DNA from: a virus
Lineage: Duplodnaviria > Caudoviricetes
Direction: 5' to 3' (one strand)
IMG/VR virus record: IMGVR_UViG_3300037439_000017
Span: 1 to 35,820 of that record
Length of the DNA: 35,820 nt
The notes beneath the pieces were generated by a model. The model saw only the letters and a program-made list of their open reading frames with translations. It was not told where the DNA came from and ran no database searches. The position numbers were made by a program, and so were the translations under genes. Below, piece after piece: positions 8,277-24,794 of the stretch; positions within the stretch are counted from its first letter, which is position 1; each line of letters begins with the position of its first letter.

Positions 8277-8747
8277 TTAGCCGAGGCGGACGACGGCGAG
8301 GCCAGTGGCCGCGGCGGAGGTGTCCCAACGGGCGCCGACGATCTGCACCGCCGAGTTCGCGTTGGAATCCTGGAAATCGCCGTTCGACGGGCGGACCCAG
8401 ACGGCATCACCAGCGCTGCAACCGCTGGCGCAGACGACCCAGATGTCGCCCTTGGTCATGACGCGGGCGGACTCGCCGATCCCGAAGACATCGGGCGTGT
8501 CGGCGGTGACCTGGCCATCGGTGACACTCAGCCCCGAGGCGGAACGGTCGAGGACCGTGATGCCCAGGACGGTGCCACCGTCGAACAGGATGCAGCCCTT
8601 GTCGGCGGTGCCCTGCTCCACGGCCTTGCCGAAGCCGATGGCTGCGACCTCGACGGTGCGGCTGATCAGCGTCGCCGGGATCATCGTGGCCTGTGCGCCG
8701 GCAACCGCGGCCGGCTGGGTGTCGTTGTAATCGGTCTGGACGGCCAT
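8277..8747 (-). CDS. Capsid decoration/cement protein
   Basis: 156 aa between protease and MCP; IGFGKAV, VMTKGDIWV, GARWDTSA motifs. Confidence 0.8.
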   Translation of the reverse strand: MAVQTDYNDTQPAAVAGAQATMIPATLISRTVEVAAIGFGKAVEQGTADKGCILFDGGTVLGITVLDRSASGLSVTDGQVTADTPDVFGIGESARVMTKGDIWVVCASGCSAGDAVWVRPSNGDFQDSNANSAVQIVGARWDTSAAATGLAVVRLG

Positions 8748-8749
8748 GG

Positions 8750-9952
8750 TTACTTACCTCCCGTCGCGGCGGCCTTCGGGCCGGCAGCGAGTGCGTCGAC
8801 GCTGGCCTGGTAGCCGTTGTCGTTGATGGGCGTCACCGAGGCGCTGCGGAGCACCCGGTTGACCGGATCCTTCTTGGCGTCCTCGACGAGGATGTCGAAG
8901 CGGGCGTCGACGTACGCCTGCGGCTTGTCCTTGATGGCCGCATCGCCGAGCTTCGCGACCACGGCAGCCTTGCGGATGTCGTCGTCGGTCTTGCCGGAGT
9001 AGTCGGCGTCGTGGACGGCCTTCGCCGTGGCGATCAGGTCGGCGCGCGCTTTGACACGCTGGTCGAGCTGCTCGTCGCTGAGCACCTTGCCCTTCAGGCT
9101 GTCGATCTCGGCATCCTTCTTGGCGATGGTGGCGTCCCGGTCCGCAAGCGCGGTCTGGTGCTTCGTTGCCGCATCGGTCAGGGCGGTGGAGCCGTCCTGT
9201 ACCTGCTGCTGCAGCTTGGCGATGGCCTGGGCTCCCGCGTCGGTGGTTTCGACGGACAGCCCATCGACCATGACGGTCTTGGTCTTGATGGTGTCGCTCA
9301 TGGTGAGTTTCCTCGGTGGTGGGTTGTCGTCGCCGATACGAAGTTGATCCCCACCGCGCGCCCGGTCGACTAGCGCGAGGTGTTGTGCTGAAACTGGTGT
9401 TGCGCCCCAGTGACTCTTGCTGTCACCGATGCGAAGTTCTGATCCTCCGCGGGCTGCGGCGACGATGGCGACGTGGTTTTGCTTCAGGTCGGTCATGTAG
9501 GCGTCGTACGGCTCCCCCGCAGGGGAAACGCCGTCGCTGAAGACCAGCTCGGCGCTGTATCCGGCAGAAAGCTCACGGGTGCCGCGGTTGACCTCGTCGA
9601 TGGCCTTCTGGTCGCGCAACATCATCGGAACGCGGACGAATTCACCGTCGCGCATGACTTCATCGCCGACCTCGCCGCGCGCCAGGTCCTTCCAATTGGA
9701 CGCAGTCACGCCTGCCTTCGGGTGTCCGACCGTGATCGGAACGCCAGCGTACGAAGCCATCGCGTCCTGTCGGAATACCTCGTCCGCAGGTCGGAATACC
9801 CTGACGACGTGCATTTCCGGATGACCGATTTCGTCACCGAGGTAAAGCTGGACGTTCTCGGCGCGCGCGACCCGTGCGTTGAACACCGCATAGCCCTCAG
9901 CGGTCTTTCGGATGGACGCCTTGTCCACCGCGACCGTATCGATGAATTGCAT
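8750..9952 (-). CDS. Prohead protease-scaffold (DUF2213 family)
   Basis: ATG at 9952 (GAGG RBS); PITVGHP, ELSAGY, NHVAIV..ARGG..LRIGD motifs; coiled-coil C-terminus. Confidence 0.88.
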   Translation of the reverse strand: MQFIDTVAVDKASIRKTAEGYAVFNARVARAENVQLYLGDEIGHPEMHVVRVFRPADEVFRQDAMASYAGVPITVGHPKAGVTASNWKDLARGEVGDEVMRDGEFVRVPMMLRDQKAIDEVNRGTRELSAGYSAELVFSDGVSPAGEPYDAYMTDLKQNHVAIVAAARGGSELRIGDSKSHWGATPVSAQHLALVDRARGGDQLRIGDDNPPPRKLTMSDTIKTKTVMVDGLSVETTDAGAQAIAKLQQQVQDGSTALTDAATKHQTALADRDATIAKKDAEIDSLKGKVLSDEQLDQRVKARADLIATAKAVHDADYSGKTDDDIRKAAVVAKLGDAAIKDKPQAYVDARFDILVEDAKKDPVNRVLRSASVTPINDNGYQASVDALAAGPKAAATGGK

Positions 9953-9977
9953 GTTCTCTGCCTCTTGGTGGATCGAC

Positions 9978-10012
9978 AAAAGAAAAGGGCACCCGGTTGG
10001 GCGCCCCTTCTT
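9978..10012 (-). terminator. Intrinsic terminator closing the RAMP/array cassette
   Basis: Minus strand AAGGGGCGCCC-AACC-GGGTGCCCTTT followed by TCTTTT; G-U pairs form only on the minus strand. Confidence 0.7.
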
Positions 10013-10023
10013 GTCGTTTTCGA

Positions 10024-10081
10024 CCCTTGCTAAGCCATACCCGGCCATACCAAGCACAGCCCTGCTGCGCCCTACCGTGCC
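10024..10081 (-). repeat. GGY-NN pentamer array 2 (11 units plus GGG), candidate guide RNA
   Basis: Minus strand: GGC AC GGT AG GGC GC AGC AG GGC TG TGC TT GGT AT GGC CG GGT AT GGC TT AGC AA GGG. Confidence 0.9.
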
Positions 10082-10099
10082 GACTGGCGCTTACCGCAC

Positions 10100-10127
10100 C
10101 GCAATGGATGGCACGCCACCCATTACG
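10100..10127 (-). other. Long hairpin separating the two pentamer arrays
   Basis: Minus strand CGTAATGGGTGGC-GT-GCCATCCATTGCG; two G-U pairs that would be A-C mismatches on the plus strand. Confidence 0.8.
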
Positions 10128-10137
10128 CTGTTGTCAG

Positions 10138-10190
10138 CCCTTGCTACGTCGCGCCGCGCCAAGCCGTGCCTAGCCCCGCTCGGCTGTGCC
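10138..10190 (-). repeat. GGY-NN pentamer array 1 (10 units plus GGG), candidate guide RNA
   Basis: Minus strand: GGC AC AGC CG AGC GG GGC TA GGC AC GGC TT GGC GC GGC GC GAC GT AGC AA GGG. Confidence 0.88.
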
Positions 10191-10325
10191 GTGGTTCAAG
10201 CAACTGCGAAGCCGTTGGACATCCGCCGACCAGAGAAGGCAAACCAGCAGCAGGACCATGCAAGCGATGACGCCGGCTAGCTGAAGCAATACCGGTTTGC
10301 TAGTCCTGTCGATGAAGGACTTCAC
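10170..10325 (-). CDS. Possible 51-aa single-TM peptide (not in ORF track)
   Basis: GTG with AAGGA RBS; MKSFIDRTSKPVLLQLAGVIACMVLLLVCLLWSADVQRLRSCLNHGTAERG; stop codon lies inside array 1. Confidence 0.4.
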   Translation of the reverse strand: MKSFIDRTSKPVLLQLAGVIACMVLLLVCLLWSADVQRLRSCLNHGTAERG

Positions 10326-10328
10326 TGG

Positions 10329-10832
10329 TCAATCCTTCGCGGATTCATTCGTCTCCGGCTTCGCCAGAAACCGTTTGCGCTTTGCGCGCTTCGCGCTTTC
10401 CTCAAGGAACGAGAGCCGCGCCAGAGCATCGGCGTTCTTCCTCGCTTCCTCGTGGCTCAACGCACCGCGATCGATGAAGCTCAGCCGTCGCCCCATCTTC
10501 CGAAGCTCCGACTTCACACGCTTCATGCCGTGTTCCATCGCGTATTCCGTTTGCTTATCCGGCTCCACGATCATGTAGCCCTGCCCCGGTACGGCCTTCA
10601 GGCACATGTTGCGTTCTTCTAGCAGGTGGTTTGCCAACGCATCAACCTGCGCAAGCAGGGACAACCGCCATTCCTCGTACTCGTCAACCGTGATTCTGCC
10701 GGTCGGCTTCGGCAAAAGGAGCGCCGCTTGTAGCTCATCGTGCGGCACCACGTCGCCGTAGGTGTACCGACCTGCGAACAGTTCGGCGGCAGCGTTGCGC
10801 CATGCCGGCAGCAGATGGACCGCGCCGCTCAC
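10329..10832 (-). CDS. RAMP-associated accessory protein, winged-helix-like N-terminus plus helical basic C-terminus
   Basis: GTGA-coupled to the RAMP gene; GDVVPHDEL..., LKAVPGQGYMIV wing-like motif; basic tail. Confidence 0.7.
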   Translation of the reverse strand: MSGAVHLLPAWRNAAAELFAGRYTYGDVVPHDELQAALLLPKPTGRITVDEYEEWRLSLLAQVDALANHLLEERNMCLKAVPGQGYMIVEPDKQTEYAMEHGMKRVKSELRKMGRRLSFIDRGALSHEEARKNADALARLSFLEESAKRAKRKRFLAKPETNESAKD

Positions 10833-11398
10833 GACAGAACCTCAACGCCGAACCGGCCGAAACGCGGGCGGTAGGTGCCGATGCCTATGCGCCGGCCGGC
10901 TTCTTCCACTACCCGCACAAGGTCGCCCTTATCGATCACGTCCTCCATGAACTCGATATCGAACTGCGTTGCCCACGACAGGAAGATCGGCCTGCAACGC
11001 ATGATCTTCTTGCCGCCGACGTTTACCCCGCGAACATCGGCGTGCTTGTTGCCCTGCCACAGCTTTTCCTTCTTACGCGGGCCGTCATATTCCAGCTTGT
11101 GCTTGTCGTCCACGACCCGCACGGCTTGCTTGATGGTCTTGCCTAGCCGGTGAATCTTGCCGGCCTCTGCAATGCAGCCCTCGATGTTCAGCGCCGGGAT
11201 GTAGGGGCCGATCTGATCGTCGAAGTACATGCCGGCCGACCACTCCGACTCCATCAGCCAGAGGTAATCGTCCTCGGACTTCTTCTTCTTGCCGCTGACC
11301 GCCTTGTGAGCCTTGGTCAGTTCGTGCAAGGGGTTCGCCAGGGTCTCCGCCTGCATCAACAGGGGAGCGTTTCCGGTAATGCGGAACGTGATGTTCAT
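10829..11398 (-). CDS. Stand-alone Cas7/Csm3-like RAMP superfamily protein
   Basis: RAMP hallmarks: N-terminal strand ITFRITGNAPLLM, PYIPALNIEGCI (cf. PxIPGSSxKG), RPIF..W, C-terminal Gly-rich loop GRRIGIGTYRPRFGRFGV; GAGG RBS. Confidence 0.8.
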   Translation of the reverse strand: MNITFRITGNAPLLMQAETLANPLHELTKAHKAVSGKKKKSEDDYLWLMESEWSAGMYFDDQIGPYIPALNIEGCIAEAGKIHRLGKTIKQAVRVVDDKHKLEYDGPRKKEKLWQGNKHADVRGVNVGGKKIMRCRPIFLSWATQFDIEFMEDVIDKGDLVRVVEEAGRRIGIGTYRPRFGRFGVEVLS

Positions 11399-11454
11399 CG
11401 GTAAGCCTCAGTTCGTGGCCTGCTGTTTGGCGGTATGCCTAGCGCCACGCACCG

Positions 11455-11483
11455 AATATATTACCGTTATCGGATGTTTTCAA
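11455..11483 (-). promoter_or_regulatory. Sigma70-type promoter for the RAMP operon
   Basis: Minus strand TTGAAA-17 bp-TATATT in an AT-rich patch about 55 nt upstream of the RAMP ATG. Confidence 0.7.
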
Positions 11484-11548
11484 TCCTTTTAAGGGCTGTA
11501 CTATCATGATGTCGGGCTGGAATAACCCTCATCAGCGAGAATGCGACA

Positions 11549-11770
11549 ATGTCCACCATGCTCAGCGGCTCCAAACTACGCGCCATCCGATCCCTGAAGG
11601 GGATGACCCAAGCTCAGCTTGCGGAGGCCTCAGGGGTCTCCCCCACCGCCATCACCGAGTACGAAAAAGGCAAGCGCGACCTACGCGCCGACACCATTCG
11701 GAAGCTCTGCGAAGCGCTCGGCGTGCAGGTCAAGTACATCGTGGACGGGACCGAGATCACCGGCCCTTAG
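11549..11770 (+). CDS. XRE-family HTH regulator, divergent from the RAMP operon
   Basis: LRAIRSLKGMTQAQLAEASGVSPTAITEYEKGKRD..L..ALGV. Confidence 0.9.
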   Translation: MSTMLSGSKLRAIRSLKGMTQAQLAEASGVSPTAITEYEKGKRDLRADTIRKLCEALGVQVKYIVDGTEITGP

Positions 11771-11954
11771 CCTTGCGCTTCGCCTTCCGCTTCTTCCTGA
11801 GTTTCGCAGCGTAGTCATCCATTTCCTTGGTCGCTGTCGCCATGCCCTTTAGGGCTGCATTCAGCTTGGTCTGCGCGGATAGCGCATCCAGCTTCCGTGT
11901 CCCCTCTGCCAGCTGGCTCGAATCCACGCGATAGCCGAGGTCGTTGATATTCAT
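11757..11954 (-). CDS. Small protein resembling a tape-measure N-terminus with a basic tail (possible remnant)
   Basis: MNINDLGYRVDSSQLAEGTRKLDAL..; GGAG RBS. Confidence 0.5.
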   Translation of the reverse strand: MNINDLGYRVDSSQLAEGTRKLDALSAQTKLNAALKGMATATKEMDDYAAKLRKKRKAKRKAKGR

Positions 11955-11967
11955 TTAGTCGCTTCTC

Positions 11968-13413
11968 CTAGACCTTGCCCGTGAATGGGGCAATATCACT
12001 CTCCGTGAACGTGTGGATCGGTGCTGAATCTTTGGCCGCGATCCGCTCTGCCTCGATCTCTTCGGGCGTCTTGCCGGTCGTCAGCGAGGCCACATCATCT
12101 TCGGTCGTGTCCTCACCATCTGGATTCGCGGCCTTCCACTCATCCATCGACTGCTCGAGGCCAGGCGCGACGCCCGCTTCAGTGAGCATCGTCACCGCGA
12201 CCTCGCTCATCACGTCGTCTGGGATCAGGCCGGTCTCGCCGATCGACTTGATCGTCTCGGCGGTGATCTTGCCGATGTCGGCGCGTTCCTTATCCGTGCT
12301 CTGCCAGAGGCTGGCCCAGTTGTAGAACAGTTCCGGCGGGCGCGTGCCCAGTGCAGATCGGATCAGGCACTCGTCGAAGATGGCGAGCGCCGGCGTCATC
12401 GATAGCTGCTGCATCGCGCTGATGCGGTCGTAGTAGTTGCGGATGTCGGCATCGCCGGTCGCATTCAGACCTGCAGGGGCTTGCCCGAGCAGGCGCGTGA
12501 CCGGGATGTCGGCCGCACCGGACACCAGCTGCATGAAGGCCAGCATGATGTTCGTCAGCTCGCCGAAGGTCGCGGTCTTCTGCTCGTACTCTTCCTCGGA
12601 GTCGAGGATCAGGCAGCCGTTGATGCCCTTGGCCGTCGCCGCCAGGGTCAACCGCTCGATGACCTGCTGCTCGTACGCCGTACCGCCGCCCTGCAGCTTC
12701 TCCATCAGCTTCGGGATTTTGATCACGTCGATCTTCGCTTCGAACACCAGCGAGGCGATGTTCGCCGCGGTGCCGTCGGCTTGCTTGATCGTCTGCAGGA
12801 TCGCGAGCAGGACCGGGTCGCCCCAGCCGCGTTCGGCTCCGGTGGCCCGCTCCGGATCAGGATGCAACGCGCCCTGGAAGATGATCAGCCGCGAGGGATG
12901 GATGTCGACTTGGCCGGTCTGGCTGGTGATCGTGTATTCCTTCGGCTTGCCGTAGGCCTCAGATTCCGGGTTGGTCTCGGTCTCGCCGGCCTGCAGCACG
13001 CGGCGCGTCAGCACGTTGAGGTGCTTGATGCCGCCTTTCGCGATCGACTCCGGGTTCAGCGGCTTCGTCGGATCGGAGTCACCGGTACCGATGTAGATCG
13101 CAGCACCACCGAACAAGCGCGCCTTGGTCAGCGCTTCGAGCACCTTGGCCTGCAGCCCCAGCCGTGTCTCCTCGGCCTCGACATCGCTGATCTCGTCGCC
13201 ATCGGCCTGCCAGTTCCGCCACTTGCGGCAGGCATCGAGCGCCGGGATGTCGATGATCTTCCGCGGCAGCCACGCACCACGGTAGGCGTTGAGCAGCTGA
13301 TCCTCGGGCAGGCACGGCACGGCGTAGTAGCTGCTGGCCGCCTTGTCGCGAGGCGTGTTGAGGTTGGCGACCAGGTTGCGCAACCCGTCGCCGATCTTGT
13401 GGACAACGCCCAT
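11968..13413 (-). CDS. Portal protein (DUF1073 family)
   Basis: Follows TerL; W..RKIIDIPA.D..R.W, ARLFGGA, IHPSRL, SGAADIP.TRLLG.AP.GLNATG..D..NYYD motifs. Confidence 0.9.
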   Translation of the reverse strand: MGVVHKIGDGLRNLVANLNTPRDKAASSYYAVPCLPEDQLLNAYRGAWLPRKIIDIPALDACRKWRNWQADGDEISDVEAEETRLGLQAKVLEALTKARLFGGAAIYIGTGDSDPTKPLNPESIAKGGIKHLNVLTRRVLQAGETETNPESEAYGKPKEYTITSQTGQVDIHPSRLIIFQGALHPDPERATGAERGWGDPVLLAILQTIKQADGTAANIASLVFEAKIDVIKIPKLMEKLQGGGTAYEQQVIERLTLAATAKGINGCLILDSEEEYEQKTATFGELTNIMLAFMQLVSGAADIPVTRLLGQAPAGLNATGDADIRNYYDRISAMQQLSMTPALAIFDECLIRSALGTRPPELFYNWASLWQSTDKERADIGKITAETIKSIGETGLIPDDVMSEVAVTMLTEAGVAPGLEQSMDEWKAANPDGEDTTEDDVASLTTGKTPEEIEAERIAAKDSAPIHTFTESDIAPFTGKV

Positions 13414-20118: not shown

Positions 20119-20489
20119 CACGCGGCCCGCCTGGTGTTCTTCGCGATCAGCGCGTGCTGTTGCTGCATCAGAGATTCGTCATCGCCGAACACGGCATGGA
20201 ACGGCACGCTGCCTTCGGATAGCGCGGGCCCGAGCAACCGGCGATGGGTGCCGTGATTCCAGCCAGCAACGATCAGGCGGCCGGAGTGATGCCATTTGCA
20301 TAACCCGACGGTGTGCAGGTGGCCGCGACGAATACCGCCCGACAGTAGGTGATGCGCGTCCACAACCGAACCATCCGGATCGTGTTCGTAGCCGCGCGCG
20401 ATGCAGCACAGGCAGCCGAGTCGCTTCACGGTGGTGACCCACTCGCGTTCGGCTTTCGTCATGTTCCCCGTGGAACGACCCACCCTCAC
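20118..20489 (-). CDS. Ref-like recombination enhancement nuclease (HNH-type)
   Basis: LGCLCC, AHH..GG.R.GH..T..LC.WHH, F...FG.D..L motifs. Confidence 0.75.
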   Translation of the reverse strand: MRVGRSTGNMTKAEREWVTTVKRLGCLCCIARGYEHDPDGSVVDAHHLLSGGIRRGHLHTVGLCKWHHSGRLIVAGWNHGTHRRLLGPALSEGSVPFHAVFGDDESLMQQQHALIAKNTRRAA

Positions 20490-21007
20490 AGCAAGCCTCC
20501 GGGATGCAGCGACCTCTTCGCTTGAACATAGGCCGCATGGGCTTCTTCAGCGGTGTCATATGTTCCGAGCGCCATCTTCTTTCGGCCGGCACAAATGAAA
20601 GCCCGGAAGCGCCGCCCTTCGGCAACGACCCCAAGTAGGCCTACACGGCTGCGAGAAGTGGCGCTTCGAAGGTTCTGCGCGTTGCACGCGTTGTCCGCAA
20701 GGCGAAGGTTCTTAATTCGGTTGTCAGCTCGCAACCCGTTCTTGTGGTCGACCTCGACCCCAGCGTCGATTGCGCCATGTACGAACATCCACGCTAGCCG
20801 GTGAGCCAGATATACGCGGGCTTCAAGTCGGATAGCTGTATATCCATCTTGATTTGGCGAGCCTGCCTCGCTCCCGGCGACAGCCCTGCCGTTACGTGTT
20901 TCTCGCCAAAAGAATTTTCCTGTTTCCGCATCGTACCGAAGCATCCGCTTTGCAAATTCTTGCAATGACTCGCCCGCAAGCGGCTTGCTTGCCTTATATG
21001 GGTTCAC
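20486..21007 (-). CDS. HNH homing endonuclease with AP2-like domain
   Basis: GTG at 21007; YD.ETG.F.W, AHRLAW, VDHKNG.R.DNRI.NLR, LG.YDTAEEA..AY; slightly lower GC. Confidence 0.88.
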   Translation of the reverse strand: MNPYKASKPLAGESLQEFAKRMLRYDAETGKFFWRETRNGRAVAGSEAGSPNQDGYTAIRLEARVYLAHRLAWMFVHGAIDAGVEVDHKNGLRADNRIKNLRLADNACNAQNLRSATSRSRVGLLGVVAEGRRFRAFICAGRKKMALGTYDTAEEAHAAYVQAKRSLHPGGLL

Positions 21008-21555
21008 GCCGCACCATCCGGCTTCTGGATAATCAACTCCACTTCCTCGCGGCTCGCAGCGCTCAGCCCGCCGAACACTTCCCGGCGCAGCCACCCGATC
21101 CAGCCACCCTCGCCGTTGCCGCCGTCCCACAGTTCGTTGAATCGACCCTCGTCCACGTCTGAGAAGTTCAGCGATTCCGCTTCGGTGCGCGTCAGCTTGC
21201 CCACGCCGGGAATGTCGTAGTCGACTGTCTCGCAACCGATGCCCGACAGCTCCTGCAGCTTCTTCAGCGCGTCGTGCATGCCGAGTCCGGAGAACTGCTC
21301 CACGTTGTCTGCGAGCCAGCCTGCGAGGACGTGAGCCTTCCGGTAGAACATCGGATTCCGGTCCTGCCGCAGCGTCGCGCGCAGCATCTTGCCGGTGTTG
21401 AACTTGCGCTCGCGCATCGAGCGGCGATCGATGGGGTGATCCGGCACAAGCGCGCCGACGATTTCTCCGGTCTCGGGAATCATCACCTTCATCACGGTCA
21501 CGCGGATGTCGCGTGCGCGGAGCTTGGCGCGCGCCTTCTGCAGTGCGGTGGTCAC
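21004..21555 (-). CDS. DUF1367/NinB-like protein
   Basis: RNPMFYRK and SLNF..VDE..F..L motifs; nin-region position. Confidence 0.55.
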   Translation of the reverse strand: MTTALQKARAKLRARDIRVTVMKVMIPETGEIVGALVPDHPIDRRSMRERKFNTGKMLRATLRQDRNPMFYRKAHVLAGWLADNVEQFSGLGMHDALKKLQELSGIGCETVDYDIPGVGKLTRTEAESLNFSDVDEGRFNELWDGGNGEGGWIGWLRREVFGGLSAASREEVELIIQKPDGAA

Positions 21556-23030
21556 CGATCACGCCCTGCAGCGCGGTCGCGTCCGCTTGGCGCTGGATCG
21601 TCGAAGCCGTCCTCGCCCGCTGCGCTCTCGGGCTTCTTCGTCTTGTAGTTCGGCCGCGGCCCGAAGTAGTCGGCGAAGTAGCTGCATTCGAGATGGTGGC
21701 GCAGGTATGCGGTTCCGGTTGGGCCGTTGCGCTGCTTGCCGATGATGAACTCGGCAACGCCAGGCGCACCGCTCAGGTCCTTCGTGTAGTAGTCGTCTCG
21801 GTACACGAACGCCACGATGTCCGCGTCCTGCTCAATTGCACCGGACTCGCGCAGATCCGCCATCGTCGGGCGCTTGTCGGTGCGGCCTTCCAGAGACCGG
21901 TTCAACTGCGACAGTCCGATCACCGGGCAGTGCAGCGTCTTTGCCATCAACTTGCAGCGCCGGCTGATCTTCGTCATTTCGTCGTAGCGCTTTTCGTCGC
22001 GCCGGCCGTCGCCGCTGATCAGCTGCAGGTAATCGATGACGATCAGGCCCAAGCCCCCGGGCACCTTTGCGTGCATGCGCGATGCGCGTGCTTCGATGGC
22101 GTCAATCGTCAGGCTCGCGGTGTCGTCGATCGCGATCGACAACGCTCGCGAGTCCTTGTACGCGCCGTTGATCGCCGACCAGTCTTCCGGAGTGAGTGCT
22201 GCCTTCTGCCGCATCCGTGCGTTGTCGACGCGCGCGCGCCTGGACAGGAGGCGAACGCCAAGCTGCTTCTTGCTCATCTCCAGCGAGAACACGGCGACGT
22301 TCCGCTCGTGGTGGCTGGCCGCGTGGTCTGCGAACTCCAGCCCCGTCACTGTCTTGCCCATGCCTGGGCGGCCGGCGATCACCATGAAGTCGGTGTCCTC
22401 CAGACCCGGCAGTTTCGCGCGGACGTTCTCCCATGGCGGCGTCAGGCCGACCTCGATCGTTCCGGCATCGCGGGCGACGATCTCGTCCCACGCTTCGGTC
22501 ATCGCGCCGCGGAGCATGCACAAGCCCCCTGCCCGCGCGCCGCGCATGGTCAGGCTCGCCATCTTCGCCGCGCTGTGCGCGACGATCTGGTCGGCCTCAC
22601 GCCCTTCTGGCAGGAATCCGTCGTTCACAATCTCGGTGCCGACGGTGATCAGGCGCCGGAGCGTCGACTTGTCCGCCACGATCTGCGCGTAGTCGCGCAC
22701 GTTCGCCGGCCGCGGCGGTGCCTTCCATAGTTCGATCAGGTAGGCGCCGCCTTCGACTTGGTCCGCCTTGCCGTTGGACTCGAACCACTCGCCCACCGTC
22801 AACGCGTCGTACGCCTTGCCCTTTTCCTTGAGATCGAGGATGGCCGCGTAGATCAGCTGGTGATCGCGCCGGTAGAAGTCCTCGACTTGGATCAAGTCCG
22901 CAACATCGTCGATCGATTCCGGCGTCAGCATCAGCGTGCCCAGTACCGCCTGCTCAGCATCGATCGCCTGCGGCGGGATGCGCAGCTGCTCGATGCGGTC
23001 CTCGTGGCGCGGGGAACCGTCGGCGCTCAT
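21552..23030 (-). CDS. dnaB: Replicative DNA helicase, DnaB family
   Basis: PPQAIDAEQAVLG, AGRPGMGKT, FSLEM, VIDYLQL, LSQLNR, DLRESGAIEQDAD, KQRNGPTG. Confidence 0.96.
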   Translation of the reverse strand: MSADGSPRHEDRIEQLRIPPQAIDAEQAVLGTLMLTPESIDDVADLIQVEDFYRRDHQLIYAAILDLKEKGKAYDALTVGEWFESNGKADQVEGGAYLIELWKAPPRPANVRDYAQIVADKSTLRRLITVGTEIVNDGFLPEGREADQIVAHSAAKMASLTMRGARAGGLCMLRGAMTEAWDEIVARDAGTIEVGLTPPWENVRAKLPGLEDTDFMVIAGRPGMGKTVTGLEFADHAASHHERNVAVFSLEMSKKQLGVRLLSRRARVDNARMRQKAALTPEDWSAINGAYKDSRALSIAIDDTASLTIDAIEARASRMHAKVPGGLGLIVIDYLQLISGDGRRDEKRYDEMTKISRRCKLMAKTLHCPVIGLSQLNRSLEGRTDKRPTMADLRESGAIEQDADIVAFVYRDDYYTKDLSGAPGVAEFIIGKQRNGPTGTAYLRHHLECSYFADYFGPRPNYKTKKPESAAGEDGFDDPAPSGRDRAAGRDR

Positions 23031-23860
23031 GCGGCCTGGTCCTCTTTCGGCGCGCGCTCAGCGTCTCGTTCCCGCTTGAGCTGCACGCCGGCGGTCGTCA
23101 GGTCGCACTGGCCATCGCCCGGCATCCACCACAGGCGGAACCAGTTCCGGCGCACGCAGTTCTCGAACTTCTGCCGCCACCCGCGCTTGCCGGCCTGCGT
23201 GGTCTTCCCGTCGCGGTACTGCCGGACGAACTCGCGCCACGCCAACTCGAGGAAGTCGGTCGGAATCCCCGCAGTGGCAGCGAAGGCGAAAACAGCGTGT
23301 TCGAGGGGGATCAGCTTCTCGCCGTCCGTGCGACAGGCCTGGACGAAGTCGGCGTAGGTCATCCCCTTGGGCGACTTCGCCCGTTTCGGCTTGCCCTCCA
23401 CTGCTTGCCCCCTGGAAGGGGGTATGGGGGTTTCTTGATCTTGAAGAGAATCAGGAATCAGAGAATCAGGAATCAGAGAATCAGCCGGGCTCGTATCTGC
23501 CTTGGTTGTGTCTTGCACAGTGCTTGCACAGTGCTCGCCCGGTGCAGGTATGGTGCTTTTGGCCTCCTTTACATGCGGATTCTGGTGCTTGCACCATGCA
23601 AGAATCTGGATAAAGGCTTTGCCATCAACGGTGTAGCGAAGAATGAACCCGCCATCGTGCAGCGCCTGTAGTCCTGCACTGACATCGACAGGATCGGCAG
23701 GAAACACCTCCATTCGTATCTTTGTGGGGCGATCTTCGAGGCGTCCATCGCGGTCTGCCATCGTCCACAACCCCACGAACAGCAGCCGATATTCGAAAGC
23801 GAGTTCGACAAGTAGCTCGTTCTTGAAGAACCCCGGCTTGATATTGCGGGCTCGGCTCAT
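23027..23860 (-). CDS. Phage replication initiator (O-like)
   Basis: MSRARNIKPGFF.NE, LF.GLW..AD..GRL N-terminal domain; internal repeats; upstream of dnaB. Confidence 0.8.
   Translation of the reverse strand: MSRARNIKPGFFKNELLVELAFEYRLLFVGLWTMADRDGRLEDRPTKIRMEVFPADPVDVSAGLQALHDGGFILRYTVDGKAFIQILAWCKHQNPHVKEAKSTIPAPGEHCASTVQDTTKADTSPADSLIPDSLIPDSLQDQETPIPPSRGQAVEGKPKRAKSPKGMTYADFVQACRTDGEKLIPLEHAVFAFAATAGIPTDFLELAWREFVRQYRDGKTTQAGKRGWRQKFENCVRRNWFRLWWMPGDGQCDLTTAGVQLKRERDAERAPKEDQAA
23445..23556. repeat. Tandem repeats within the initiator gene (probable ori/iterons)
   Basis: (AGAGAATCAGGAATC)x2.7 at 23445-23484; 11-bp period CTTGCACAGTG CTTGCACAGTG CTCGCCCGGTG CAGGTATGGTG at 23512-23555. 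Confidence 0.65.
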
Positions 23861-24615
23861 TGGTAGCGGCCCTCGATCAGGTCGCTCATGTCGTCTTGCC
23901 AGTTGCGCCAGGAGCGTGCGTCTTTCGCTAGGGCCTTCAGGGTTTCGTCATCGGCGCCAGCCGCCCTCGCCTGCCTGAGCAGGGTGATTGCAATGCCTTC
24001 ATGGACGTAGTTGAGGCGGTTTCGCAGGATGCCCCTGGCGTACCGGAGGCCTGATTCATCGGGCTTGCTGCGGTAGTTGCAGATGCCGCCGAGCTTCGAG
24101 AACGCCAGCGTGGCGCTATCGCGATCAACTACAGCGGCGTACTGATCCTTGGCGATATCCATGCCTTCAAGCACTGCGGTCAGGCCAAACTCCCGAATCA
24201 ACTTTTTGAGGCTGGCCACTGCCGCATCGTTGGTGATCGCCCAGCCTGTGAATGTCTCGGCGAAGTGATCACGCGCCGCATCAAGCTGCAGTTGATCAAT
24301 CGTCTTCAGGCCCTTGCGCCAATCCAGCATCATTTTCAGCTGCTCACGACGCTCTGAGAGGTCCGCCAACTGCTGGCGCTGTTTGGACAGCGTGGCGTTG
24401 TCATCCAGTGGCGTGGCGCCCTTGCCGCTGTTGCAGTCCACGCAAGACGTGATGAGGTTCAGAGGATCGTTGTCGCCTCCGCGACTGACCGGGTCGACGT
24501 GATCAACGTGCAAAACAACGTCAGGGGCCTTGGATCCGCAGTACTGGCACATGAAGCTGTCGCGCTTGAATACCTCGAAGCGGACCTTCTTGCTGATCGC
24601 CTTTCTCTTGGCCAT
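23857..24615 (-). CDS. HNH endonuclease-domain protein
   Basis: ATG at 24615; RFEVFKRD.F.CQYCG, LHVDHV.P...GG.....NL.TSC..CN.GK. Confidence 0.85.
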   Translation of the reverse strand: MAKRKAISKKVRFEVFKRDSFMCQYCGSKAPDVVLHVDHVDPVSRGGDNDPLNLITSCVDCNSGKGATPLDDNATLSKQRQQLADLSERREQLKMMLDWRKGLKTIDQLQLDAARDHFAETFTGWAITNDAAVASLKKLIREFGLTAVLEGMDIAKDQYAAVVDRDSATLAFSKLGGICNYRSKPDESGLRYARGILRNRLNYVHEGIAITLLRQARAAGADDETLKALAKDARSWRNWQDDMSDLIEGRYQ

Positions 24616-24794
24616 TACGCGGCCAGCTCGATCGGCAACTGGGGCGAAGGCTGGCGCTTGGCCTCGTCCCGCGCGACCTGGCGGGCGTGGAGGATCTGGT
24701 ATTCCATGCGCTGCTCGGCGGTCGTCTCGCCGGACAGGCACTCTTCCCGGCAGCGGCGGAAGCGCTCGAGGACGATCTCGTCGCGGCGGCTCAT
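24615..24794 (-). CDS. Hypothetical protein
   Basis: ATG at 24794 (ATGA overlap); 59 aa. Confidence 0.55.
   Translation of the reverse strand: MSRRDEIVLERFRRCREECLSGETTAEQRMEYQILHARQVARDEAKRQPSPQLPIELAA

Follow-up and report, generated by a model that had tools for sequence, protein, structure and literature searches.

A putative domain-swap scar in the DUF2213 protease-scaffold gene of phages, found with and without a VIPR cassette

The DUF2213 gene on the stretch of viral DNA analyzed here (a 35.8-kb virus record, the whole of which is called the window) is, judging by identities and trees, a hybrid of a foreign prohead protease domain and the phage's own scaffold half. The gene holds two copies of one motif, and the second copy is resident sequence, the scar of a domain swap rather than the product of a tandem duplication. 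Comparison with other chimeric genes indicates that this scar is more widespread than the VIPR cassette that lies beside it in the window, and that its position tracks the putative start of the scaffold.

Genomic Context and Family Assignment

The minus strand of the window carries terminase, portal, DUF2213, decoration and major capsid genes, with the cassette between the portal and the DUF2213 gene (Table 1). Close relatives of the window that bear names come mostly from Xanthomonas and Stenotrophomonas and the nearest Vipr protein is found in a Luteimonas assembly. In the replication region, short tandem repeats at 23445-23538 lie within a DnaT-like replication gene and are possibly origin iterons, and two ORFs (20486-21769 and 23857-24741) carry HNH domains.

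The product of the DUF2213 gene, P0001, matches the profile PF09979 with an E-value of 2e-52 (178 bits, against a curated cut-off of 22) and the head maturation protease family phrog_530 with an E-value of 1e-101. Its location between the portal and the decoration and major capsid genes is likewise that of the family. The predicted fold resembles the herpesvirus and T4 gp21 proteases, the top Foldseek matches being the proteases of EBV and HCMV and T4 gp21, with weak E-values of 5e-4 to 3e-3. H77 and S129 are invariant across 145 DUF2213 sequences and are presumably the catalytic residues.

Table 1. Coordinates in the window of the DUF2213 gene, its parts and the adjoining cassette.
Feature	Position	Strand	Evidence
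Chimeric DUF2213 prohead protease-scaffold gene, P0001, 400 aa	8750..9952	-	PF09979; phrog_530; Foldseek
Foreign protease domain (by identity and tree), residues 1-190, ending with the donor-lineage WGxxP linker	9383..9952	-	Identity and tree
Motif copy 1, NHVAIV...RIGD, N159-D177, in the folded protease domain	9422..9478	-	Strand 148-164, pLDDT 93-98; guide match
Motif copy 2, HLALV...RIGD, H191-D208, resident-allele remnant	9329..9382	-	Residues as in the P0008/P0019 motif; pLDDT ~45-50; guide match
23-nt remnant core, candidate cis signal	9357..9379	-	Exact match to L283, L295, L302, L304
Resident scaffold half with putative internal start (GAGG 9311-9314, ATG 9299-9301)	8750..9314	-	Sequence; Met218; helices
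Terminator-like hairpin at cassette end	9983..10010	-	Pattern match only; shuffles expected to give as many sites
VIPR array 2, the last vrRNA, 10-11 GGY/NN units	10032..10086	-	Antisense to N-I-R-I/M-N-H-L-A-L-V-D/E codons
VIPR array 1, 9 units	10146..10190	-	Three exact viral matches
vap1-like accessory gene, putative DNA-binding	10329..10832	-	27% identity (E 2e-17) with the gene following the Vipr homolog of phage Moogle
vipr gene	10829..11398	-	38% to Mooglevirus/Felixounavirus proteins; RAMP fold, Csm3/Cmr matches from E 6e-6
Divergent Cro/CI-type HTH gene	11549..11770	+	Pfam HTH_3

A Motif Present Twice

Both copies of the motif are in frame within the gene. They are separated by the spacer SKSHWGATPVSAQ and share 12 of 18 residues and 37 of 54 nucleotides. 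The best 18-residue self-match of P0001 has a score of 64; 40 shuffles gave no more than 41. A full second copy occurs in 3 of the 470 DUF2213 sequences surveyed (292 proteins and 178 loci, which are non-independent), and partial second copies in 14 of the 425 sequences that were parsed, 45 further ones being left unparsed. Eleven of these partial copies were judged real; the remaining three, in P0360, L097 and L122, are weak and were put down to chance. The first-pass annotation had thus rightly pointed to a duplication of a motif that is normally single. It had also considered that such duplications might be common in DUF2213 proteins whatever the cassette; the full second copy is rare, although chimeras without a cassette do occur.

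The structure model puts copy 1 in the barrel of the protease and copy 2 in a linker modelled with low confidence, the low pLDDT being partly due to alignment gaps. A contig from sequencing run X1, which may be that of the original sample, covers 8489-12566 with no differences, and in a relative from run X2, which belongs to a separate study, both copies are spanned without a gap. An artefact of assembly is improbable, given that both studies yielded contigs across the junction. Among the sequencing runs that contain the sequence, none was of RNA. The third-position GC content is 0.53-0.67 in the junction region (9302-9478) compared to 0.90 in the scaffold half.

Different Ancestry of the Two Halves

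Seven proteins (P0001-P0007) share the protease domain of the window, with a mutual identity of 79-93% and at most 70% identity to others; for the window itself the values are 79-85% to the other chimeras and at most 68% to non-chimeras. Between their scaffold halves, identity is 61-79%, and most of these halves are nearer to non-chimeric proteins. In a tree of the N-terminal halves, for which 60 of 155 rows were picked by hand and L259 represented P0007, the seven chimeras form one clade with a support of 100/96, and its sister is the lineage with a WGxxP linker (98/93). The scaffold half of the window groups with the non-chimeric P0008 and P0019 (93/85), whose native motif consists of the same 18 residues as copy 2. 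In tests on 28 hand-picked rows, for the scaffold halves under a simpler model, the C-terminal halves reject the chimera clade (p-AU 6.9e-7) and the N-terminal halves reject the grouping of P0001 with P0008 and P0019 (p-AU 2e-38). A single phylogeny for both halves, which would have spoken against the replacement of a resident allele proposed in the first-pass annotation, is thus not what the trees give, and with copy 2 read as resident sequence that proposal gains support.

The other six of these chimeras retain only LRIGD, RIGD or IGD of the resident motif. A second, unrelated foreign domain is found in P0035, L283, L295, L302 and L304, where the remnant begins at LALV, one codon later. The motif can also be repeated by a third route, as two different alleles, P0025 and P0242, carry the same 56-residue in-frame insert between two resident-type copies. 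P0025 equals P0056 apart from this insert, which may be a small mobile element.

Searches for further chimeras gave few. No close chimera was present among the best 80 of 253 and the best 80 of 180 viral loci, scanned with the protein and with the chimera alignment, and a metagenome scan yielded one in six loci (L259). GenBank phages had no nucleotide match to the gene and only proteins of less than 60% identity. The 300 genomes of the G001 family contained two full-length alleles, both resident, one genome being left unscored. Of 26 matches to the junction pattern, 23 were unrelated, and a reversed control pattern also matched, in 1 of 401 genomes; L304 was accepted as a chimera only because the gene there proved to be DUF2213.

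The VIPR Cassette and its Guides

The cassette consists of an HTH gene, vipr, a vap1-like gene and two GGY/NN arrays. Its RAMP-fold Vipr protein, vap1-like gene and arrays mark it, on sequence and fold, as a type II VIPR system, an assignment made via Mooglevirus proteins (SUSP1 is a Mooglevirus) and not via SUSP1's own protein. The Mooglevirus Vipr-like proteins likewise have arrays behind them. No Pfam domain was found in the vap1-like protein, and domain and profile searches detected no nuclease family in any of the three cassette proteins. The HTH gene travels with the Vipr clade of the window, adjoining vipr in L081-L084, L100-L102 and L185. In the X2 relative, the region of the arrays (window 10127-10193) has about 110 extra bases, probably one more vrRNA; the vap gene ends directly before array 1.

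The three exact viral matches of array 1 encode the same peptide, and the one that was checked lies in a terminase-like ORF. The array-1 match (window 10146-10190) adjoins what we take to be a Walker B motif of this unrelated terminase-like gene.

VIPR guides are described as pairing by a one-base-skip rule, aligned to wobble positions, with type II VIPR acting as a repressor and 80% as the match cut-off for targets (10.64898/2026.04.26.720920). By this rule, all 12 exact viral matches of array 2 lie in frame at the resident DUF2213 motif. Resident-type alleles of the window's family match guide 2 at 18-21 of 22 bases in the five of five loci scored, compared to 13/22 for copy 1 (over 9458-9490) and 14/22 for copy 2 (over 9365-9397). 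The best site anywhere in the window reaches 16/22, and shuffled guides at most 19/22 (30 trials over the fetched loci). Scores of at least 18, calculated as upper bounds derived from the protein, are reachable by 98 of 103 resident proteins and 2 of 9 native WGxxP proteins but by none of the 8 chimeric first copies, and both foreign domains match the guide at 12-15/22. The window allele, lying below the 80% cut-off, is therefore predicted to be spared by its own guide; a term search of the VIPR structure preprint returned no mismatch data. This agrees with the earlier view of a guide aimed at the resident-type motif and a resistant foreign domain, and the earlier count of four fully matching array-2 dinucleotides out of 11 in copy 1 was likewise reproduced. 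Copy 2 was also said to be truncated on its N-terminal side exactly where the array-2 match ends. Six dinucleotides in a row (H-L-A-L-V-D) do match before the match fails, but the coincidence is partly circular because copy 2 is defined by its likeness to the resident motif.

Position of the Junction

In all eight chimeric proteins compared, which may reflect as few as two events and whose junctions were set by eye, the join lies 22-27 codons before the conserved scaffold methionine and 7-8 codons after the donor WG. Long remnants go together with resident linkers of 9-10 residues (2/2) and short remnants with linkers of 19-22 residues (6/6). In P0001, this methionine is Met218, which is near-invariant among 145 homologs, and long helices are predicted after residue 238. 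We infer that the ATG at 9299-9301 serves as an internal start for a separate scaffold product. As the join keeps this distance of 22-27 codons to the putative start regardless of which part of the motif is found there, the remnant was probably retained as a signal for expression from it.

A candidate for such a signal is the 23-nt core of the remnant (Table 1), which is identical in the window and in L283, L295, L302 and L304, despite the unrelated foreign domain of the latter. No longer exact match exists between the window gene and either of the full-length genes compared with it, those of L283 and L295. The core includes a rare CTA codon (3 of 212 leucine codons); resident alleles share 17-20 of 24 nucleotides there. 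A pattern search found no promoter-like site near the remnant and Rfam no family above cut-off in this region. An RNA structure was considered as the cis signal and rejected: hairpins do fold in each lineage, but comparison with synonymous recodings gave no excess structure at the remnant in chimeras (mean z +0.5) and covariation at the remnant hairpins was weak, with two-sided changes in 1/8, 0/18 and 0/11 pairs. Four cassette-free genes share an invariant run of 83 nucleotides, next to an equally invariant one of 86 nucleotides in the scaffold coding region, and a recent sweep could account for the former as well as constraint does. Separately, at about 60 nt upstream of the scaffold start, the RIGDG and WGxxP peptide motifs were observed to overlie a pair of predicted hairpins, several of which have GNRA-type loops; these are seen in L004, L024, L028, L036, L093, L105, L107 and L111, and no compensatory changes were found in them.

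Linkage of the Swap to the Cassette

The first-pass annotation suggested that the protease domain may have been acquired along with the cassette and asked whether the protease half tracks cassette-bearing phages. The former does not agree with the other loci. In L259, a contig of 2.5 kb, the foreign domain of the window stands directly behind an HNH gene (phrog_374, E 2e-57). Four loci without a cassette carry the second foreign domain followed by a near-identical remnant; two of them are the complete proviruses G305 and G306, where no Vipr was detected and the positive control was found. In L283, L295 and L304 the chimeric gene directly adjoins the portal gene, with no cassette between. Conversely, DUF2213 is present in the flanks of 0 of 86 other Vipr loci, and close Vipr relatives are placed elsewhere in head-tail operons, beside other head and tail genes. 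Chimera and cassette occur together in the window and in the X2 relative and apart in L259, L283, L295 and L304, in a comparison that covers two of the seven proteins with the window's foreign domain (all but P0002-P0006).

In the X2 relative, the block 9167-9952 has 3 differences in 786 nt, compared to 34 in 593 nt downstream, among the differences listed (10 others are unlisted). The portal gene differs by about 10%, the cassette genes by 7% and the flanks of the protease block by about 7-11%. This suggests that the protease block next to the array was recently transferred.

The annotation had also placed the crossover inside the guide target and likened the event to co-conversion by free-standing homing endonucleases. 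The junction of the window allele does lie inside the guide-2 footprint. In the other six of the seven proteins that carry this domain, however, the junction is 12-15 codons downstream, outside the footprint, which gives no support to the guide having set the crossover. As searches of the cassette gave no nuclease, nothing evident in it would make the break needed for homing-type co-conversion.

Last guides match a flanking gene of their own locus more often than other guides do (9/68 compared to 4/118, counting matches at p≤0.01). Wobble-aligned near matches of last vrRNAs were seen in flanking structural genes of L100 (6318-6485), L185 (5295-5321 and 7288-7343), L231, L220 and L243. The last guide of L100 matches its own adjacent tape-measure gene at 16/18, and three cassette-free homologs at 17, 15 and 13 at the same site, so that neighbour-directed guides need no swapped allele; L185 also keeps a 16/18 match to its own gene. 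In more distant VIPR prophages, guides match conserved tail-gene motifs of related phages at 20-22/22 and their own alleles at 16-18, which indicates that these prophages target structural genes of kin phages. Such targets were seen for L187, L191, L201 and L213 (a tape-measure motif) and for L208, L240 and L242 (a tail gene). Among 164 distinct guides, 24 have a target at two mismatches or fewer in other loci, 16 of these with a homolog at their own locus, and the own allele scores lower in 16/16, partly because the best foreign match was picked. Special recoding of own alleles under the guides was rejected, as the identity in the footprint is about that of its flanks.

Proposed Explanation and Alternatives

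The explanation given a somewhat better than even chance is that the gene joins a foreign protease domain to a resident scaffold half and that the second copy was probably kept for the signals of a putative nested scaffold start. Protease domains would be exchanged as modules and the scaffold would stay with its own capsid, the join falling after the donor WGxxP linker and before some 70-80 nt of resident sequence that need to be retained. With a short resident linker, the retained stretch would include the motif and leave a long scar, as in the window; with a long one, only RIGD or IGD would be left. The mobile VIPR cassette would then bring a guide that targets the resident-type motif in rival phages; the window phage would tolerate the cassette because its own allele is mismatched to the guide. 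Most likely, the swap came first and the guide second. The benefit of the swap would most likely be escape from sequence-specific attack on the conserved motif; escape from guides or endonucleases fits both foreign domains and would also benefit phages without VIPR. A tentative extension, rather on the improbable side, is that the last guide of a VIPR cassette, aimed at an essential neighbour gene, provides nuclease-free marker exclusion among kin phages, from which a whole-domain swap offers escape because the wobble-skipping code blocks escape by point mutation. The join would then be squeezed between a guide footprint that must break and a scaffold signal that must stay.

It is unlikely that the VIPR cassette and a resistant protease domain move as one unit, with guide binding driving or selecting a crossover in the target as a kind of nuclease-free homing. 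The junction within the footprint, which leaves 14/22, the more frequent matches of last guides to their own flanking gene, and the near-identical block beside the array in the X2 relative would all fit. Against this stand the chimeras without VIPR, the Vipr loci without DUF2213, the six of seven junctions in the clade outside the footprint, and the 16/18 match that L100 keeps to its own adjacent gene. In addition, the X2 cassette genes differ by 7%, unlike the protease block, and the system has no nuclease that could be found and is described as a repressor (10.64898/2026.04.26.720920). A free-standing HNH gene between portal and protease could instead have spread the foreign domain by co-conversion, with VIPR taking the slot later. 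Intronless homing with co-conversion is established (PMC2988022), L259 has its HNH gene directly before the same foreign domain, and unidirectional conversion would produce a single N-domain clade spread over many scaffold lineages, as seen here. This is nevertheless equally unlikely, as a single such locus was found, viral contigs gave no relative of its HNH protein above 47% identity, and in the second chimeric family this slot is free of endonuclease genes. Moreover, no duplication was seen in L116, L117 and L120, whose DUF2213 genes also follow related HNH genes; partial remnants in these three went unparsed.

Still less probable is a protease swap made in escape from a host immunity that senses prohead protease activity, the guide match being incidental. 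Prohead proteases are reported to activate CBASS (10.64898/2026.03.04.709575; see also 10.1101/2023.05.21.541620), although direct evidence is lacking for DUF2213 proteases. Portal-Acb1 fusions were observed directly upstream of the protease gene in L295 (676-2460), L001, L002 and L304. The anti-CBASS Acb1 domain in the L295 portal (PF23474, E 4e-30) and Acb1-like motifs in 48 fetched loci would favor this reading, but the motif is absent from the window and the fusions accompany resident (L001, L002) and chimeric (L295, L304) alleles alike. Immunity alone also leaves the remnant unexplained. That the repeat arose by tandem duplication in place and later drift, or from misassembly, is very improbable: the insert that turns P0056 into P0025 shows that a repeat can arise by other routes, but the two copies come from different lineages and share only 37 of 54 nt, and contigs of two studies span the junction.

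Comparison with Known Systems

The VIPR preprints name satellite, regulator, vipr and vrRNA targets (10.64898/2026.04.26.720920; 10.64898/2026.10.15.759431). Their text does not mention phage proteases, homing or alleles; DUF2213 or structural-gene targets may be listed in their target tables and figures, which are outside this statement. The competition preprint describes lower self-matches and argues against mutational escape (10.64898/2026.10.15.759431). Given the argument of the VIPR papers that targets cannot easily mutate their way out of the wobble-skipping code, a recurrent domain swap at the targeted motif would be a concrete route, and domain swapping is a plausible escape from wobble-proof guides. 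The fixed junction distance in turn predicts an unrecognized internal signal for scaffold expression in a widespread, uncharacterized head-gene family. Even if neither escape nor signal holds, the gene remains a clearly resolved example of mosaicism below the gene level among phage head genes. In the literature searched, no report linked VIPR to prohead genes, described this scar or recorded a repeated protease-only replacement with a scar at a fixed distance from the scaffold start.

Nested protease-scaffold genes are known from lambda (C/Nu3), Mu (I/Z) and herpesviruses (UL26/UL26.5). With these, the DUF2213 gene shares an N-terminal assemblin-fold protease, a C-terminal helical scaffold and a conserved internal methionine with a ribosome-binding-like site, the internal start being only putative in DUF2213.

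Co-conversion by free-standing endonucleases is established (PMC2988022, PMC10448857). With the intronless homing and marker exclusion of T4 SegF, SegG and MobE, as described, the window has in common an intergenic element by an essential gene, a conserved target and a resistant carrier allele; it differs in that no nuclease was found in the cassette and in having a duplicated motif instead of a clean conversion tract (PMC2988022).

The closest comparison is type II VIPR itself, as known from the SUSP1 and P. fulva clades. Its arrays have 9-16 GGY/NN units and a 3′ tail (10.64898/2026.04.26.720920). The window resembles these systems in having vipr and a vap1-like gene, GGY/NN arrays with tails and the one-base-skip code, as well as targets in rival phages and self-matches below 80%. 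Unlike them, its guide aims at a motif of the cassette's own neighbour gene, which the carrier appears to avoid by the swap of a whole domain.
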